Positions 6,003 to 59,080 of a DNA stretch of 64,000 nucleotides are shown here, one piece after another; positions within the stretch are counted from its first letter, which is position 1, and each line of letters begins with the position of its first letter. The stretch comes from Sphyrna mokarran. Its lineage: Eukaryota. Under the pieces are notes generated by a model. That model searched no databases, had not been told where the DNA came from, and worked only from the letters and a program-made list of their open reading frames with translations. A program made the translations under genes and the position numbers. The DNA lies in assembly GCA_024679065.1 (NCBI GenBank), contig JAGIQG010000009.1:81840001-81904000 (forward strand), in the 5' to 3' direction.

Positions 6003-6051
6003 ATGATTTCAGCCATCCAGCTGCTCTGGCCTCTGGCATTCTGCATCGCAG
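6003..6051 (+). CDS. IGKV: Ig kappa-type light-chain leader exon (MISAIQLLWPLAFCIA-G)
   Basis: ATG at 6003, hydrophobic signal peptide, phase-1 GT donor at 6052; splices in frame to 6238. Confidence 0.93.
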
Positions 6052-6237: not shown

Positions 6238-6538
6238 GTATCAATGGAGAGATCATCATGACCCAGACTCCCGCGGTGCTGTCAGTGAGCCTGGGCCAGA
6301 CCGCCACCATCACCTGTACGGCCAGTCAATCTGTTAGCAACGATTATGTGAATTGGTATCAACAGCGAGAAGGACAGAAACCGGCTCTGCTGATCTACAA
6401 TGCAAACTCTCGATTCGCAGAAGTATCCGACCGATTCACCGGCAGTGGATCCGGGACAAGTTTCACCCTGACAATCAACAATGTTCAGAATGAGGATGTC
6501 GCTGATTATTACTGTCAGCAAGGTTCCATCTCTCCCTA
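6238..6538 (+). CDS. IGKV: Ig light-chain V exon, kappa / shark NS4 (type III) class, germline unrearranged, intact
   Basis: ccctcag acceptor; (G)[53 protein letters not shown]...[35 protein letters not shown] with the conserved Cys, Trp and YYC. Confidence 0.96.
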
Positions 6539-6566
6539 CACAGTGAAACAGAGCCTTACAAAAACC
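6539..6566 (+). other. V recombination signal sequence, 12-bp spacer
   Basis: CACAGTG (6539-6545) + aaacagagcctt (12 nt) + ACAAAAACC (6558-6566), perfect consensus; the V12/J23 arrangement is the kappa-type configuration. Confidence 0.98.
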
Positions 6567-6569
6567 CCA

Positions 6570-7170
6570 ACACACAGTCCCACCTCCTGTACTGACACAT
6601 CCCACAGTTTTATAAAATATATAATAATGGACACACAGTCCCACTGCCTGTACTGACACATCCCACAGTTTTATATAATATTTAATAATGGACACACAGT
6701 CCCACCTTCTGTACTGACACATCCCACAGTTTTATATAATATATAATAATGGACACACAGTCCCACCTCCTGTACTGACACATCCCACAGTTTTACATAA
6801 TATATAATAATGGACACACAGAGCCACCTCCTGTACTGATACATCCCACAGTTTTATATAATATATAATAATGGATACACAATCCCACCTCCTGTACTGA
6901 TACATCCCACAGTTTTATATAATATATAATAATGGACACACAATCCCACCTCCTGTACTGACACATCCCACAGTTTTATATAATATATAATAATGGACAC
7001 ACAGTCCCACCTCCCGTACTGACACATCCCACAGTTTTATATAATATATAATAATGGACACACAGTCCCACCTCCTGTACTGACACATCCCACAGTTTTA
7101 TATAATATACAATAATGGACACACAGTCCCACCTCCTGTACTGACACATCCCACAGTTTTATAAAATATC
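6570..7170 (+). repeat. 61-bp minisatellite, about 10 copies, in the V-J spacer
   Basis: Unit acacacagtcccacctcctgtactgacacatcccacagttttatataatatataataatgg; cccacagttt recurs at 6601, 6662, 6723 ... 7150. Confidence 0.97.
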
Positions 7171-7432
7171 TAAGAAACACAAGAAAGGAAACTGAACAAA
7201 TTATTTGCACTGTCCACTACACACTCCAGTCCCTATGGTGTCCAATGCTCACTGAAAGCCTCAAGTTTCCCTCTTACTCTCCATGTTCACATATGAAGAG
7301 CAGCTGAAAGATTTATCATCTCAAATTAAAATTCTCAACTCTCCCAATAAAACACAAAGACATTGAGAGAAACAGAGATAGGAAGAGACAAAGAGATGAG
7401 ATGAGTGAGTGAGTGAGTGAGTCAGAGACAGA

Positions 7433-7471
7433 GGTTTTTGTACAGCTCCTGCACTGGAAGCTGTCAGTGTG
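7433..7471 (-). other. J recombination signal sequence, 23-bp spacer
   Basis: GGTTTTTGT (7433-7441) + 23 nt + CAGTGTG (7465-7471; one mismatch to CACTGTG, critical CAC retained). Confidence 0.95.
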
Positions 7472-7506
7472 CCTTACGTTCAGTAAAGGAACAAAACTCA
7501 GACTGA
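7472..7506 (+). CDS. IGKJ: Ig light-chain J segment (LTFSKGTKLRL), the only J in the cluster; non-canonical FSKG motif
   Basis: c ctt acg ttc agt aaa gga aca aaa ctc aga ctg a, then a perfect GTAAGT donor at 7507; phase 1, matching the C acceptor. Confidence 0.93.
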
Positions 7507-8679
7507 GTAAGTAAAGCCCAATCCTCCGTTATTAACCCTTTTAATGTTGAAACTTTCTCAAACACAAATACTGAATAGTTGAAGGTGTTAGTGAGGGAGT
7601 TGCAGTCAATGAAATGGTTGATTGAAGAACATTGTGTTGAACAGGGAGTCCAGCTGTATTTCTTTCCTTCCATTCCCCCCTTTAAACAGCAAGATTTCAG
7701 TAAGCAGCTTTTACCCACCGTGTGGAGGAGATCTGGACGTTTGCAGACTGTGTTCACATTCCTGCAGCATGGAGTGAAATCACTCTCTAGACTCCTGTCG
7801 GTCTCAGTGTGACACACACAGGCAGAGTTTGATGTGAAGTTGAACTCTCTGTCTCACTCTCTGATATCACTGATCACAGCAGCAGCACAGTGAGACACCG
7901 AGGTGCCACCTGCCCCAGCTTTCACTCTGCTCTCTCCACTCCCTGCTTATCTCTTGCTGAAGTTCTGATGACAAACAGCCACAGCAGGGCTCACAATCCA
8001 GGGGCTTCAGTGTTGCAGGTTTTTGCTACTTTCTCTTTGGGATGAGTTCAGTCCGACATTTATCCTGGATCCAACATCACTGAAAATGCTGATTGTTCTC
8101 ATTGCTGTGTGTGGGATCTTGCTGTGTACATTTGTGACCACTCCTCAGACAGGATCCCTCATTTGTTGACTTCCTGAACTGGATCCCAATTTTGTTTTCC
8201 TCTGGGTGAGGAGTAATCAGCTGGAATCCTACCCTCGATTGGTCACAACTGGGTTCATTTAAAATGGATCCTTTCACCCGTGGAAACCTTACAAATTTGG
8301 CAAATTCCAGTTTAGTGAAATTGGCCCTATCCTATTTAAAACATTTCAAAGAACAAAGAACAAAACAGCATGGGAAACAGGCCCTTCGGCCCAACGAGCC
8401 CTCGCCGCCACCCCGATGTTCCCACCTCGACCCGCGATCCGTGACCATGTTTATAGATCCAAATTTGATTTAAATCCAAATTTGAGACAATTTAGGGAGA
8501 ATTTGTTTTGCCTATGAGCCTAAAAGCACATCTTTGGGATGTGGGAGGAAACCAGAGCACCCGGAGAAAACCCACGCAAGCACGGGGAGAATGCGCAAAC
8601 TCCCACAGACACAGGCACAAATCCATGTATCTGCACAGCACAGCGATAGTCAACGAGCTGTTGACTATCAAATGGTCCA

Positions 8680-15123: not shown

Positions 15124-15452
15124 CCCGTGAGAATTCACAACCCACGCTGACCCTGCTGCCCCCCTCCCCGGAGGAGGTCAAGACCAAGGGCACTGCCACC
15201 CTGGTGTGCCTTGCCAATCACTTCTATCCCGATGAGGTGGAGGTGAAGTGGAAGAAGGACGGTGCAGCCATTTCCAACGGGGTTCAGACCAGCAACTACC
15301 TGCGAGCTTCGGACAACACCTACAGCGTCAGCAGCCTGCTGACCCTCTCTGGCTCCGACTGGGAGTCCAACGCTCGCTTCTCCTGTGCCCTCACCCATGT
15401 GAGCCTCTCCTCTCCCCTCAGCAAGAGCGTCAGGAGTTCAGAATGTGCCTAG
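15124..15452 (+). CDS. IGKC: Ig kappa-type (NS4-like) light-chain constant exon, intact
   Basis: Pyrimidine tract + cag acceptor (15123); (T)RENSQPTLTLLPPSPEEVKTKGTATLVCLANHFYPDEVEVKWKKDG...YSVSSLLTLSGSDWESNARFSCALTHVSLSSPLSKSVRSSECA*; C1-set Cys/Trp and the C-terminal interchain Cys. Confidence 0.96.
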
Positions 15453-30149: not shown

Positions 30150-32100
30150 ACTAATAGAGAGAGGGGCAGAAGGGAGATGGAGGGGTGGAGAGAGGGAGGG
30201 TGGGGCGAGAGAGAGAGCCAGGATGAGAGGGGGAGGGAGGCGATGAGAGAGAGATGGGGTGAGAGAGAGAGGCGGGCAAGAGAGGGAGACCGAGAGAGGT
30301 GGGGAGAGAGGGAGACCGAGAGAGACGGGCAAGAGAGGGAGACTGAGAGAGGTGGGGAGAGAGGGAGACCGAGAGAGGTGGGGAGAGAGGGAGACCGAGA
30401 GAGGCGGGCAAGAGAGGGAGACCGAGAGAGGTGGGGAGAGAGGGAGACCGAGAGAGGCGGGCAAGAGAGGGAGCGAGAGAGAGGTGGGGAGAGAGGGAGC
30501 GAGAGAGAGGCGGGGAGAGAGGGAGCGAGAGAGGCGAGCAAGAGAGGGATGAGAGAGGCAGGGGAGAGAGGGGGGACGAGAGAGGCGGCAAGAGAGGGAG
30601 TGAGAGAGGCAGGCAAGAGAGGGATCGAGAGAGAGGTGGGCGAGAGGAGCGAGAGAGAGGGGGGAGAGAGGGAGCGAGAGAGGCGAGGAGAGGAGTAGAG
30701 GCAGGGAGAGAGGGGGCGAGAGAGGCGGCAAGAGAGGGAGTGAGAGAGGCAGGGAGAGAGGGGGCGAGAGAGGACGGGCAAGAGAGGGAGTGAGAGAGGC
30801 GGGCAAGAGAGGAGACCGAGAGAGAGGCGGGAAGAGAGGGAGCGAGAGAGGCGGGCAAGAGAGGGAGACCGAGAGAGGCGGTGGGGAGAGAGAGCGAGAG
30901 AGGCGGGGAGAGAGGAGCGAGAGAGGCGGGCAAGAGAGGATGAGGAGAGGCGGGCAAGAGAGGAGACCGAGAGAGAGGTGGGGAGAGAGGGAGCGAGAGA
31001 GGCGGGCAAGAGAGGGAGACCGAGAGAGAGGTGGGGAGAGAGGGAGCGAGAGAGGCGGGCAAGAGAGGGAGACCGAGAGAGCGGGCAAGAGAGAGTGGGG
31101 AGAGAGGGTGCGAGAGAGGCGGGGAGAGAGGGAGACCAAGAGAGGCGGGGAGAGAGGGAGCGAGAGAGAGGTGGGGAGACAGGGTGCGAGAGAGGCGGGG
31201 AGAGAGGGAGACCAAGAGAGCGGGGAGAGAGGGAGCGAGAGAGAGGCGGGAGAGAGGGAGCGAGAGAGAGGTGGGGAGAGAGGGAGCGAGAGGAGGTGGG
31301 GAGAGAGGGAGTGAGAGAGGCGGGGAGAGAGGGATGAGAGAGCGGGAGAGAGGGGCGAGAGAGGCGGGGAGAGAGGAGCGAAGAGAGGCGGGGAGAGAGG
31401 GAGACCAAGAGAGGCGGGGAGAGAGGGAGCGAGAGAGAGGTGGGGAGAGAGGGAGACCAAGAGAGGCGGGGAGAGAGGGAGTGAGAGAGGCGGGGAGAGA
31501 GGGAGCGAAAGAAGCGGGGAGAGAGGGAGCGAGAGAGGCGGGGAGAGAGGGAGCGAGAGAGGCGGGGAGAGCGGGAGCGAGAGAGGCGGAGAGAGAGGGA
31601 GCGAGAGCGGAACGAGAGAGGCGGGGAGAGAGGGAGAGAGAGAGGCGGAGAGAGAGGGAGAGAGAGCGGAGAGAGAGGGAGCGAGAGCGGGAGCGAGAGA
31701 GGCGGGGAGAGAGGGAGAGGGCGGGGAGAGAGGGAGCGAGAGAGGCGGAGAGAGAGGGAGCGAGAGCGGGAGCGAGAGAGGCGGGGAGAGAGGGAGCAAG
31801 AGAGGCGGGAAGAGAGGGAGCGAGAGAGGCGGAGAGAGAGGGAGCGAGAGCGGGAGCGAGAGAGGCGGGGAGAGAGGGAGCAAGAGAGATGGGAAGAAGG
31901 ACAGGAGGAGGCTGGGAGAGACAGAGATGTGGGAAGACACAGGAAGAGGTGTGGAGAGAGAGGTGGGGAGAGATAAAGAGGTGGGGAGAGATAGAAAGAA
32001 TGTGTGTGTCTGTGAGAGAGAAAGACTGACTGAATGAGTGAGAGAGAGAGAGAGAGAGATAGAAAAATGAGAGAGAGAAGGAGCAAGTGAGAGCGAATGA
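30150..32100. repeat. About 2-kb GA-rich degenerate minisatellite (units like gagagaggcggggagagagggagc)
   Basis: Almost purely purine on the + strand; source of spurious long ORFs in several frames. Confidence 0.95.
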
Positions 32101-32712: not shown

Positions 32713-33120
32713 ACCCTGTACTCTCACACTGAGACAGGGACCACCCTGTACTCACACACTGAGACAGACTGAGACAGGGACCACCCTGCACTCTCGCACT
32801 GAGACAGGGACCACCCTGCACTCTCGCACTGAGACAGGGACCACCCTGCACTCTCGCACTGAGACAGGGACCACCCTGCACTCTCGCACTGAGACAGGGA
32901 CCACCCTGCACTCTCGCACTGAGACAGGGACCACCCTGCACTCTCGCACTGAGACAGGGACCACCCTGCACTCTCGCACTGAGACAGGGACCACCCTGCA
33001 CTCTCGCACTGAGACAGGGACCACCCTGCACTCTCGCACTGAGACAGGGACCACCCTGCACTCTCGCACTGAGACAGGGACCACCCTGCACTCTCGCACT
33101 GAGACAGGGACCACCCTGTA
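32713..33120. repeat. 30-bp minisatellite, about 13 nearly identical copies
   Basis: Unit gagacagggaccaccctgcactctcgcact. Confidence 0.97.
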
Positions 33121-55574: not shown

Positions 55575-56960
55575 CTGGACCAGGGAGACACCACCCGCAG
55601 TGAACCCAATGCACTAAGGAGATACCACCCGGAGTGAACCCAATGCACCATGGAGACACCACCCGGAGTGAATCCAATGCACCAGGGAGACACCACCCGT
55701 AGTGAACCCAATGCACCAGGGAGACACCACCCGGAGTGAACCCAATGCACCATGGAGACACCACCCGGAGTGAATCCAATGCACCAGGGAGACACCACCC
55801 GTAGTGAACCCAATGCACCAGGGAGACACCACCCGGAGTGGTTCCCATGTACCAGGGAGATACCACCCAGAGTGGTTCCCATGGATCAGTGAGACACCAC
55901 ACAGAATAGCCCCCATGGACCAGGGAGACACCACCCGGAGTGGTTCCCATGGATCAGTGAGACACCACACAGAATAGTCCCCATGGACCAGGGAGACACC
56001 ACCCAGAGTGGTTCCCTTGGATCAGTGAGACACCACACAGAATAGTCCCCATGGACCAGGGAGACACCACCCGGAGTGGTTCCCATGGACCAGGGAGACA
56101 CCACCCGCAATGGTCCCCATGTACCAGGGAGACACCACCCGCAATGGTCCCCATGTACCAGGGAGACACCACCCGGAGTGGTTCCCATGGACCAGGGAGA
56201 CCCACCCGGAGTGGTTCCCATGGACCAGGGAGACACCACCCGGAGTGGTTCCCATGGACCAGGGAGACACCACCCGGAGTGGTTCCCATGGACCAGGGAG
56301 ACACCACCCGGAGTGGTTCCCAGGACCAGGGAGACACCACCGGAGTGGTTCCCATGGACCAGGGAGACACCACCCGGAGTGGTTCCCATGGACCAGGGAG
56401 ACACCACCCGGAGTGGTTCCCATGGACCAGGGAGACACCACCCGGAGTGGTTCCCATGACCAGGGAGACACCACCCGCAATGGTCCCCATGTACCAGGGA
56501 GACACCACCCGGAGTGGTTCCCATGGACCAGGGAGACACCACCCGGAGTGGTTCCCATGGACCAGGGAGACACCACCCGGAGTGGTTCCCATGGACCAGG
56601 GAGACACCACCCGGAGTGGTTCCCATGGACCAGGGAGACACCACCCGGAGTGGTTCCCATGGACCAGGGAGACACGCCTGGTGGATCCCCAAGAAATCAG
56701 CAGACATGTGGATTGTGGAGGCACTGTCTGGAGTTTTGCACTAGACTGTGAAGACACTATCTGGAGGATCCCTGAGAACCCGGGATACTCATCTGGAGTT
56801 CCCCCAGTGGATCGAGGAGACAACGTCTGGAGTGCCCTCCCAGACTGCAGAAACACTGTCTGGGAGGATTCCCCTGGATCGCAGAAACACTGTCTGGGAA
56901 ACACTGTCTGGAGTGTCCCCCCGGATCACATAGACACTGTCTGGGAGATGTCATTAGTGG
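55575..56960. repeat. 34-bp minisatellite with variant subarrays and a degenerate tail
   Basis: Unit ggaccagggagacaccacccggagtggttcccat; variants with gtgaacccaatgca or cacacagaatag; degenerate acactgtctgg units after 56675. Confidence 0.95.
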
Positions 56961-57354: not shown

Positions 57355-59080
57355 AAGAGCCCAGGCCTCCCTCTCTCCCTCTCCCGCAGCCCGGGCCTCC
57401 CTCCCTCCCTCTCCCACAACCCAGGCCTACGTTCCCCCCTCTCTCTCTCCCACAGCCCGGTCCTCCCTCCCTCCCTCCCTCTCCCACAGCCTGGGCCTCC
57501 CTCCCTCCCTCTCCCGCAGCCCAGGCCTCCCTCCCTCCCTCCCTCTCCCGCAGCCCGGGCCTCCCTCCCTCCTCTCCCAGCCCCTCCCTCCCTCCTCCCT
57601 CTCCCGCAGCCCGGGCCTCCCTCCCTCCCTCCCTCTCCTGCAGCCCAGTCCTCCCTCCCTCCCTCCCTCCCTCTCCCGCAGCCTGGGCCTCCCTCCTCCC
57701 TCTCCCGCAGCCCAGGCCTACCTTCCCCCCTCTCTCTCTACCACAGCCCGGTCCTCCCTCCCTCCCTCCCTCTCTCTCCCACAGCCTGGGCCTCGCTCCC
57801 TCCCTCCTGCAGCCCAGGCCTCCCTCCTCCTCTCCCACAGCCTGGGCCTCCTCCCTCCCTCTCCCGCAGCCCAGGCCTACCTTCCCCCCTCTCTCTCTAC
57901 CACAGCCCGGTCCTCCTCCCTCCCTCCCTCTCCCACAGCCTGGGCCTCCCTCCCTCCCTCTCCCGCAGCCCGGGCCTACCTTCCCCCCTCTCTCTCTCCC
58001 ACAGCCCGGTCCTCCCTCCCTCTCCCACAGCCTGGGCTTCCCTCCCTCCCTCTGCCGCAGTCCAGGCCTACCTTCTCCCCTCTCTCTCTCCCACAGCCGG
58101 TCCTCCCTCCCTTCCTCCCTCTCCCACAGCCTGGGCTTCCCTCCCTCCCCCTCCCACAGCCTGGGCTTCCTCCCTCCCCTCCCACCTGGGCTTCCCTCCC
58201 TCCCTCTCCACAGCCCAGGCCTACCTTCCCCCTCTCTCTCTCCCACAGCCCGGTCCTCCTCCCTCCCTCTCTCTCCCACAGCCTGGGCCTCGCTCCCTCC
58301 CTCTCCCGCAGCCCGGGCCTCCCTCCTCTCCTACAGCCCAGGCCTACCTTCCCCCCCCTCTTCTCCCACAGCCCGGTCCTCCCTCCTCCCTCACCTCTCC
58401 TGCAGCCTGGGCCTCCCTCCCTCTCCCTCCTGCAGTCCAGGTCTCCCTCCCTCCCTCTCCCTCTCCTGCAGCCCAGGCCTCTCTCCCTCCCTCACCCTTT
58501 CCCACAGCCCGGGTCTCCTCCCTCTCCCTCTCCTGCAGCCCAGGCCTCCCTCCCTCCTCACCCTCTCCCACAGCCCAGGTCTCCCTCCCTCCTCACCCTC
58601 TCCCACAGCCCAGGTCTCCCTCCCTCCCTTCCTCTCCCGCAGCCCAGGTCTCCCCCCCCCCTTCCTCTCCTGCAGCCCAGGCCTCCCTCCCTCCTCACCC
58701 TCTCCCACAGCCCAGGTCTCCCTCCCTCCCTTCCTCTCCCGCAGCCCAGGTCTCCCCCCCCTTCCTCTCCTGCAGCCCAGGCCTCCCTCCCTCCTCACCC
58801 TCTCCCGCAGCCCGGGTCTCCCTCCCTCCCTCTCCCGCAGCCCAGGTCTCCCTCCCTCCCTCTCTCGCAGCCCGGGTCTCCCCCACCTTCCTCTCCTGCA
58901 GCCCGGGTCTCCCTCCCTCCCTCTCCTGCAGCCCGGGTCTCCCTCCCTCCCTCTCTCGCAGCCCGGGTCTCCCTCCCTCCCTCCCTCTTCTGCAGCCCGG
59001 GTCTCACTCCCTCCCTCCCTCTCCCGCAGCCCAGCTCTCCCTCCCTCCCTCCCTCTCCCGCAGCCTGGGCCTCCTTCCCT
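57355..59080. repeat. About 30-bp C-rich degenerate minisatellite
   Basis: Units like ccctccctccctctcccgcagcccgggcct. Confidence 0.93.

Follow-up and report, generated by a model that had tools for sequence, protein, structure and literature searches.

Does a tandem repeat that lies between the V and J segments of a shark immunoglobulin kappa cluster, and whose units look like 23-type recombination signal sequences (RSSs), act on RAG recombination, or does it simply travel with the gene? A preliminary description of this locus put forward a dedicated RAG decoy or silencer and named a neutral VNTR as the alternative. Our analysis favours the latter: with a probability of about 0.72, we consider the array to be a homogenised passenger VNTR in which the likeness of the units to a weak 23-RSS is fortuitous.

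In the window, by which we mean the whole 64-kb stretch of DNA that was analysed, the repeat sits within an intact shark kappa V-J-C cluster with the layout L-V-12RSS / 23RSS-J / C. The label kappa (NS4/type III) rests on this 12/23 layout and on PMC2193156. The features of the cluster are the following:

6003..6051, + strand: leader exon of a shark-type Ig kappa gene (MISAIQLLWPLAFCIA)
6238..6538, + strand: V kappa exon, open frame
6539..6566, + strand: V 12-RSS, CACAGTG/ACAAAAACC, with consensus heptamer (7/7) and consensus nonamer (9/9)
6570..7173, + strand: 61-bp minisatellite, 9.9 copies (TRF, 95% matches)
6603..7129, + strand: nine cryptic 23-type sites with 3-4 mismatches to the ideal RSS, heptamers at 6603, 6664, 6725, 6786, 6847, 6908, 6969, 7030 and 7091
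6847..6885, + strand: best cryptic site, 3 mismatches, nonamer ACACAATCC
6908..6946, + strand: second-best cryptic site, 3 mismatches, nonamer ACACAATCC
7174..7432, no strand assigned: unique part of the V-J spacer
7433..7471, - strand: J 23-RSS, heptamer CACACTG (6/7), consensus nonamer
7472..7506, + strand: J kappa segment LTFSKGTKLRL, followed by a GTAAGT donor
15124..15452, + strand: C kappa exon, open, with SECA-stop at its end

Some details of this layout deserve mention in their own right. The J heptamer (window 7465-7471) reads CACACTG, not CACAGTG, in 26/26 clusters of the family described below. The window J (7472-7506) encodes FSKG rather than FGxG, and the J segments of the paralogues encode FAKG, FGKG or FSKG. 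A GA/GAGT simple repeat occupies part of the unique spacer (7174..7432) upstream of the J RSS. In the 3' flank of J (window 7500-8300), heptamer-like words reach a density of 8.75/kb, compared with 2.0 window-wide; none of the words in that interval has a matching nonamer.

The array was said to begin 4 bp past the last base of the V nonamer, and it does so (V 12-RSS at 6539-6566, TRF array at 6570-7173, period 61). The same account held that each unit carries CACAGTT followed, 23 nt on, by a nonamer-like word. This stands for nine of the ten heptamers, whose words match at 6/9 or 7/9, and fails for the tenth (at 7152), where only 4/9 positions agree. More specifically, the ten CACAGTT heptamers recur at 6603+61n, and the nonamer-like words located exactly 23 nt on are ACACAGTCC in six cases, ACACAGAGC in one and ACACAATCC in two. 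The two 7/9 nonamers indeed belong to the heptamers at 6847 and 6908, both being ACACAATCC, and all window units lie on the + strand, in the same orientation as the V RSS, as had been described. Defining a cryptic 23-RSS by an intact CAC, a heptamer-like word, a 23-bp spacer and a nonamer-like word with at most four mismatches in all, nine of the ten window heptamers belong to such a site. A second heptamer-like word, CACAGTC, was considered as a 12-type signal and discarded, as its combined score stays below 10 at both 12 and 23 spacing. Counted as bare CAC words, the V-J spacer of the window holds 45 on the + strand and 5 on the - strand, those on the + strand being convergent with the J RSS.

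We then asked how readily this geometry arises by chance. Outside the array, the 64-kb window contains no other 23-spaced site with at least 6/7 heptamer and at least 6/9 nonamer matches except the true J RSS; at the same thresholds, it holds three 12-spaced chance sites. Among shuffled tandem units, a site (either spacer, either strand) turned up at 0.24% after mononucleotide, 0.64% after dinucleotide and 6.1% after trinucleotide shuffling. Tandemised 61-mers held a site in 59/19,690 cases window-wide and in 27/1,789 cases locally, and other repeats of the window tested for such a site held it in 0/5. Across these nulls, the cryptic-site geometry is uncommon by chance, at about 0.3-6% overall and 0.3-1.5% under most of them. 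The ten copies are in this respect one ancestral event judged post hoc, not ten independent events.

The array had been presented as a feature of one cluster, which it is not. One 770-kb stretch of G000:C1548 contains 26 matches to the V exon, and comparison of the V-J spacers finds the unit right after the V nonamer in all 26 V-bearing clusters (26/26), with 293 units in total, a median of 10 and a range of 1-29 copies. Within C1548:81.08-81.86 Mb there are 26 V, 27 J regions and 29 C matches, and L-V-12RSS, 23RSS-J and C recur together in one repeated cluster, as is characteristic of shark Ig kappa (NS4/type III) miniloci. An exact 28-mer of the unit has 217 matches in the 2.77-Gb genome, 206 of which are in V-J spacers and the other 11 in a V-less 27th cluster. 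Head-to-tail units together with a variable copy number identify the array as a minisatellite/VNTR, the variation being that among paralogous clusters within one genome assembly.

Across the 26 clusters, the + strand carries 215 23-sites at four mismatches or fewer, distributed over 25/26 clusters at 0-21 per cluster, the copies not being independent; 7/215 have at most three mismatches. L008, L025 and L001 carry the most, with 20-21 each, and L019 carries none. The 26 spacers contain three 12-type sites at four mismatches or fewer, and their minus strand contains none of either type at that threshold. A D-like segment, which needs signals on both strands, was rejected on this absence of minus-strand sites.

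Cluster integrity shows no evident relation to the number of units. The C exons are open in all 26 V-bearing clusters and the V exons in 25/26, whether a cluster carries 1 unit or 29. Clear damage is confined to two clusters, L020 (V stop, 21 units) and the V-less cluster (~34 units), and the intact L008 has 28. Conversely, L019, whose single unit offers one heptamer but no complete site, has L, V, RSSs, J and C all intact. Copy number follows neither leader-V identity (Spearman 0.02, p 0.72, over 325 non-independent pairs) nor the neighbouring cluster (-0.02). The stop of L020 (81663629) lies in frame in FR2 of the V exon, which is the sole broken V among the 26.

The V-J heptamer distance ranges from 337 to 2093 bp among the 26 clusters, or from 270 to 2026 bp between the RSSs. 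The array could be thought to act by setting this distance (337-2093 bp), or by influencing, with its AT-rich blocks, where nucleosomes are placed. The distances do vary six-fold among otherwise near-identical clusters, spacers of nurse shark NS4 are mostly 502-524 bp (PMC2193156), and nucleosome repulsion drives the use of cryptic sites (PMC12711392). Length nevertheless shows no evident relation to gene integrity, the V and C exons being open from the shortest to the longest arrays as given above, and we hold an effect of length or chromatin to be very unlikely.

The predicted strength of the sites bears more directly on RAG. Relative to the ideal RSS, the common unit has four mismatches and the two best window units have three. 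Sites with CAC and at most four mismatches have been classed as strong cryptic RSSs (Zhang et al., 2024, PMC11153149); the units pass this cut-off, and the claim that they are real 23-type look-alikes is thereby upheld. A finer scale is offered by Table S2 of PMC12711392, which comprises the top 1000 of 262,144 predicted nonamers. There, ACACAATCC occupies row 408 with an NF of 0.59 and a RIC of -38.15, compared with 0.90 and -26.70 for the consensus nonamer, and the common nonamer ACACAGTCC is not among these top 1000. Because RIC values in that table add up position by position (in three pairs, a C at position 4 lowers the score by 0.65; ACAAAGTCC is given as -44.34), we infer for ACACAGTCC, with the consensus heptamer and the assay spacer, a RIC of about -45. 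This would be ~18 RIC units under the consensus yet above the -60 line of PMC2193808, where both -45 and -38.15 represent the nonamer term only, before the penalties for the T7 heptamer and the spacer.

In 12-RSS data (PMC9723617), a purine at heptamer position 7 is preferred ~7-fold, the preference at position 5 is ~2-fold, and TT is a top-quartile spacer start. The array heptamers carry T at position 7 and are thus without the preferred purine, the array spacer begins with TT, and the true J heptamer itself lacks the preferred base at position 5. From the mismatch count, the rank and RIC of the nonamers, T7 and the TT spacer start, we predict that the array units are weak signals but not background.

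Such signals might make the array an unselected but real RAG sink, in which as many as 21 weak sites, none farther than 2 kb from either true RSS, draw off a measurable fraction of rearrangement; the diverted events would be dead inversions or J-to-array deletions, and copy number would bias cluster use. The sites pass the four-mismatch filter, the NF predicted for ACACAATCC is some way towards that of the consensus, the spacer start is a favourable one in the 12-RSS data, and the true J heptamer with which the units would compete is non-consensus. In addition, signals of the gamma-satellite gave recombination frequencies of 0.6% and 0.02% on plasmids and were cleaved in cells (PMC2193808), and at DQ52 both orientations are reachable by short-range diffusion (PMC11153149). 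The common nonamer, however, falls outside the top 1000 and ~18 RIC units below the consensus, the pyrimidine at heptamer position 7 costs ~7-fold as against ~2-fold for J position 5 (PMC9723617), no more than 7 of the 215 sites come within three mismatches, and clusters bearing up to 21 sites are intact. On balance we find a sink of this kind unlikely. That the VNTR is a dose-dependent sink, its 0-21 signals setting the productive use of each cluster and helping to limit light-chain expression among the 26 loci, seems to us quite unlikely.

Conservation of the signal bases was examined next. Positional statistics were computed on 233 parsed 61-mers or on 250 of the 293 units; in the 233 set, L001 was parsed in part (6 of ~29 units) and a few terminal units were mis-called as 36-bp. 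In the 233 units, the 12 signal-matching positions show 2.75 events per position and the other 49 show 2.53 (base-matched permutation p 0.72). The CAC bases have 3 events compared with 7.9 expected (p 0.12), a non-significant hint of constraint. Changes within the nonamer went away from the consensus 26 times and towards it 8 times (233 units), and G or A at heptamer position 7 occurs in no unit of the 233 parsed 61-mers. Heterozygosity over the 250 units is 0.045 in the nonamer-like word, 0.027 in the rest, 0.024 in the spacer and 0.017 in the heptamer-like word; for the true RSSs, it is 0 in 52 heptamers and 0.017 in the nonamers. Furthermore, 5/10 indel-bearing full units alter the 23-bp spacer, and 36-bp units that have no nonamer-like word are found in at least 5 clusters.

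The difference among units is 0.024 inside a cluster and 0.027 between clusters, compared with 0.016-0.029 for other non-coding flanks. The unique spacer beside the array differs by 0.091 between clusters, more than the units (0.027), which suggests homogenisation between clusters; homogenisation or constraint could both yield the lower divergence of the units. We observe no sign of selection for signal function, with low statistical power because the units are young and homogenised.

The human KDE is the kappa-deleting element, the counterpart of the mouse RS. A selected inactivation element analogous to RS/KDE would destroy individual kappa clusters and aid light-chain exclusion among the 26 loci. 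In spacer class and orientation the array is suited to a 12/23 inversion, its unit is confined to kappa spacers and common to several species, and sharks must limit expression from many miniloci (PMC2435157). Like RS/KDE, it is non-coding, could pair with a V kappa 12-RSS and would leave a dead locus. Its signal positions, however, are neither conserved nor improved, L019 is intact in spite of having no complete site, and the array is lost at the first V-J join, which would leave it no way of editing an expressed gene, as RS can. RS is canonical, lies ~25 kb downstream of C, deletes C together with the enhancers and can act after V-J joining (bioRxiv 10.64898/2026.04.12.717890), whereas the shark array is multi-copy, weak, placed upstream of J, and would invert. 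Downstream of C, the 64-kb window holds no 23-site with at least 6/7 heptamer and at least 6/9 nonamer matches. None of the traits that define RS/KDE, namely a position downstream of C, a conserved canonical signal and action on the rearranged gene, is found in the array, which is not an RS/KDE equivalent; the analogy fails on position, signal quality and timing. We regard a selected element as highly improbable. Taken together, the presence of the array in every cluster, its free copy number, the intact L019 and signal positions no more conserved than the others leave a dedicated RAG decoy or silencer unsupported, and a neutral VNTR, family-wide and unconstrained in copy number and signal positions, is the best fit.

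The composition of the unit suggests a way in which such an array could have grown. Each unit is made of a 25-bp and a 36-bp sub-unit, both CA-rich and both opening with GACACA..TCCCAC (11/12 aligned). The nonamer-like word is the head of the next sub-unit, and the heptamer is the TCCCAC end plus AGTT. The unique spacer tail contains GACACA..TCCCAC blocks as well, L016 being the clearest case, and the first ~75 bp of the unique spacer of the window (7174..7432) are homologous to the unit-like tail of that paralogue. The GACACA microhomology would have allowed the array to grow through slippage or unequal exchange, slippage there explaining the 36-bp variant, and exchange between clusters would homogenise the units. 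Descent from the J RSS was also considered and set aside, the spacer of that RSS having no likeness to the unit visible by eye.

The 27th kappa cluster, L026 (G000:C1548:81417300-81419900), has no leader and no V and retains J, RSS and C; its C exon ends in CLEC instead of SECA. Its array of ~34 units contains an internal inversion. Three of the array breakpoints lie in AT-rich parts at least 13 bases from the heptamer border, two of them with AT-rich filler. At the fourth, four flank bases remain attached to the heptamer, and the neighbouring sequence is a LINE-like repeat, which we take to be of the CR1 type. A RAG origin of this germline inversion was rejected for this single case, none of the four breakpoints being a flush signal end.

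To see whether the tandem arrangement is found elsewhere, contigs of eight public sequencing runs (four guessed to be RNA, four others) were aligned to the single-unit cluster L019. A search of public runs listed no RNA holder for the window, an outcome that bears neither way on expression. A tandem junction appears in 6/8 runs, coded as six organisms, X1 being possibly the same species or sample as the genome analysed. Three of the four RNA-guessed runs (organisms H, I and J) have a joint that goes back 61 bases along with ordinary trimmed, N-filled V-J joints. X1 has the joint that goes back 61, and X5 and X7 have tandem-type loose ends or inserts; X19 yielded V pieces only and X21 nothing, which is no proof that the array is absent. 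Summed contig depth over the unit is far above that of the flanks in X1, X5 and X7, a value that is not a copy number. Among the joints and loose ends listed for the contigs of the eight runs against L019, none at an array heptamer border is linked to V or J; because assembled contigs drop rare variants and most of the runs probably come from other species, this lack of array joints is not counted against RAG use.

The array lies wholly between the two true RSSs and is for this reason excised on V-J joining, and it may be tolerated because joining normally removes it. RAG would use the units rarely, either inverting between a unit and the V 12-RSS or deleting between a unit and the convergent J 23-RSS. 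The first kind of event, inversion, is allowed by the 12/23 rule and would kill the cluster. A deletion from the array flank to J could also occur, given that array CAC words are convergent with the J RSS, and in the mouse off-target joints favour convergent orientation (PMC11153149). Each such error would inactivate one of 26 clusters, without being selected for. Low-level RAG leakage at the array is plausible, and low-frequency non-functional cryptic joints within mouse loci are normal (bioRxiv 10.64898/2026.09.01.748595). Several observations stand against a passenger: the geometry is uncommon, 215 23-sites on the + strand compare with 3 twelve-sites and none on the other strand, the units pass the strong filter, the nonamer term of RIC lies above -60, the CAC bases show fewer events than expected, the units diverge less between clusters than the unique spacer, and the array is kept in several species and at this place only.

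The closest precedent is the mouse gamma-satellite, a 234-bp repeat with a cryptic 23-RS near the RIC threshold at which RAG cutting has been shown (Cowell et al., 2003, PMC2193808); the same source puts cryptic signals in mammalian DNA at 5e-4 per bp. Both are tandem units with fortuitous 23-type signals that are weak and have no known function. The gamma-satellite lies away from Ig loci, whereas the shark array is part of a V-J spacer, with a true heptamer 64 bp away, and its sites are predicted ones. In the off-target cryptic RSSs of mouse Igk and Tcrb (PMC11153149), a true RSS is likewise joined to CAC-bearing sites within the locus; those sites are dispersed and mostly single, while the shark array is one site amplified 0-21 times per cluster. 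Nurse shark NS4 miniloci (PMC2193156, PMC2435157) share the multi-cluster L-V-12RSS...23RSS-J-C plan and a short V-J spacer. Their spacers are mostly 502-524 bp and those described here span 270-2026 bp between RSSs because of the VNTR; large arrays are therefore not universal. The main text of PMC2193156 does not contain the word 'repeat', and no description of a 61-bp array was found among titles and abstract openings in the open-access literature. A minisatellite with fortuitous cryptic RSSs is a known kind, to which the 61-bp shark array is a new addition.

Even as an ordinary passenger VNTR, the array is of use. The promoters of the 26 clusters differ by 1.6% and their RSSs by 1.3-1.7%. 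With 0-21 cryptic sites and V-J distances of 337-2093 bp, these near-identical clusters form a natural in vivo dose series for RAG partner choice, which also bears on whether shark miniloci need short spacers. If cluster usage tracked copy number, this would be the first mechanism biasing or limiting light-chain expression in the multi-cluster system of cartilaginous fish, and if the sink reading were true, the repertoire would be controlled by a mutable repeat. The array also matters for the annotation and PCR typing of shark kappa loci.

Several further observations concern the locus and its surroundings. In C1548:81.08-81.86 Mb, 18 clusters are oriented one way and 8 the other. There is no germline-joined V among the 26 V matches, unlike in nurse shark NS4 (PMC2193156). 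Three C exons, L041, L057 and L045 (C1548:81703163-81705250), stand in tandem at ~880-bp spacing behind one V-J, the middle one being degenerate (86% identity, with stops). Past the end of the kappa locus, the window contains a 1.7-kb GA-rich tract (30207-31889) and further minisatellites of 30, 34 and ~34 bp (32713-33118, 55576-56675 and 57375-59079); a 12-type chance look-alike lies at 32755, inside one unit of the 30-bp minisatellite. Finally, L003 and L005 (81605059 and 81548121) show no difference over 590 bp, have 11 units apiece and are a recent or an assembly duplicate, and L010 and L011 (81393054 and 81358484), 99.7% alike and mutually inverted, are recent cluster duplicates.
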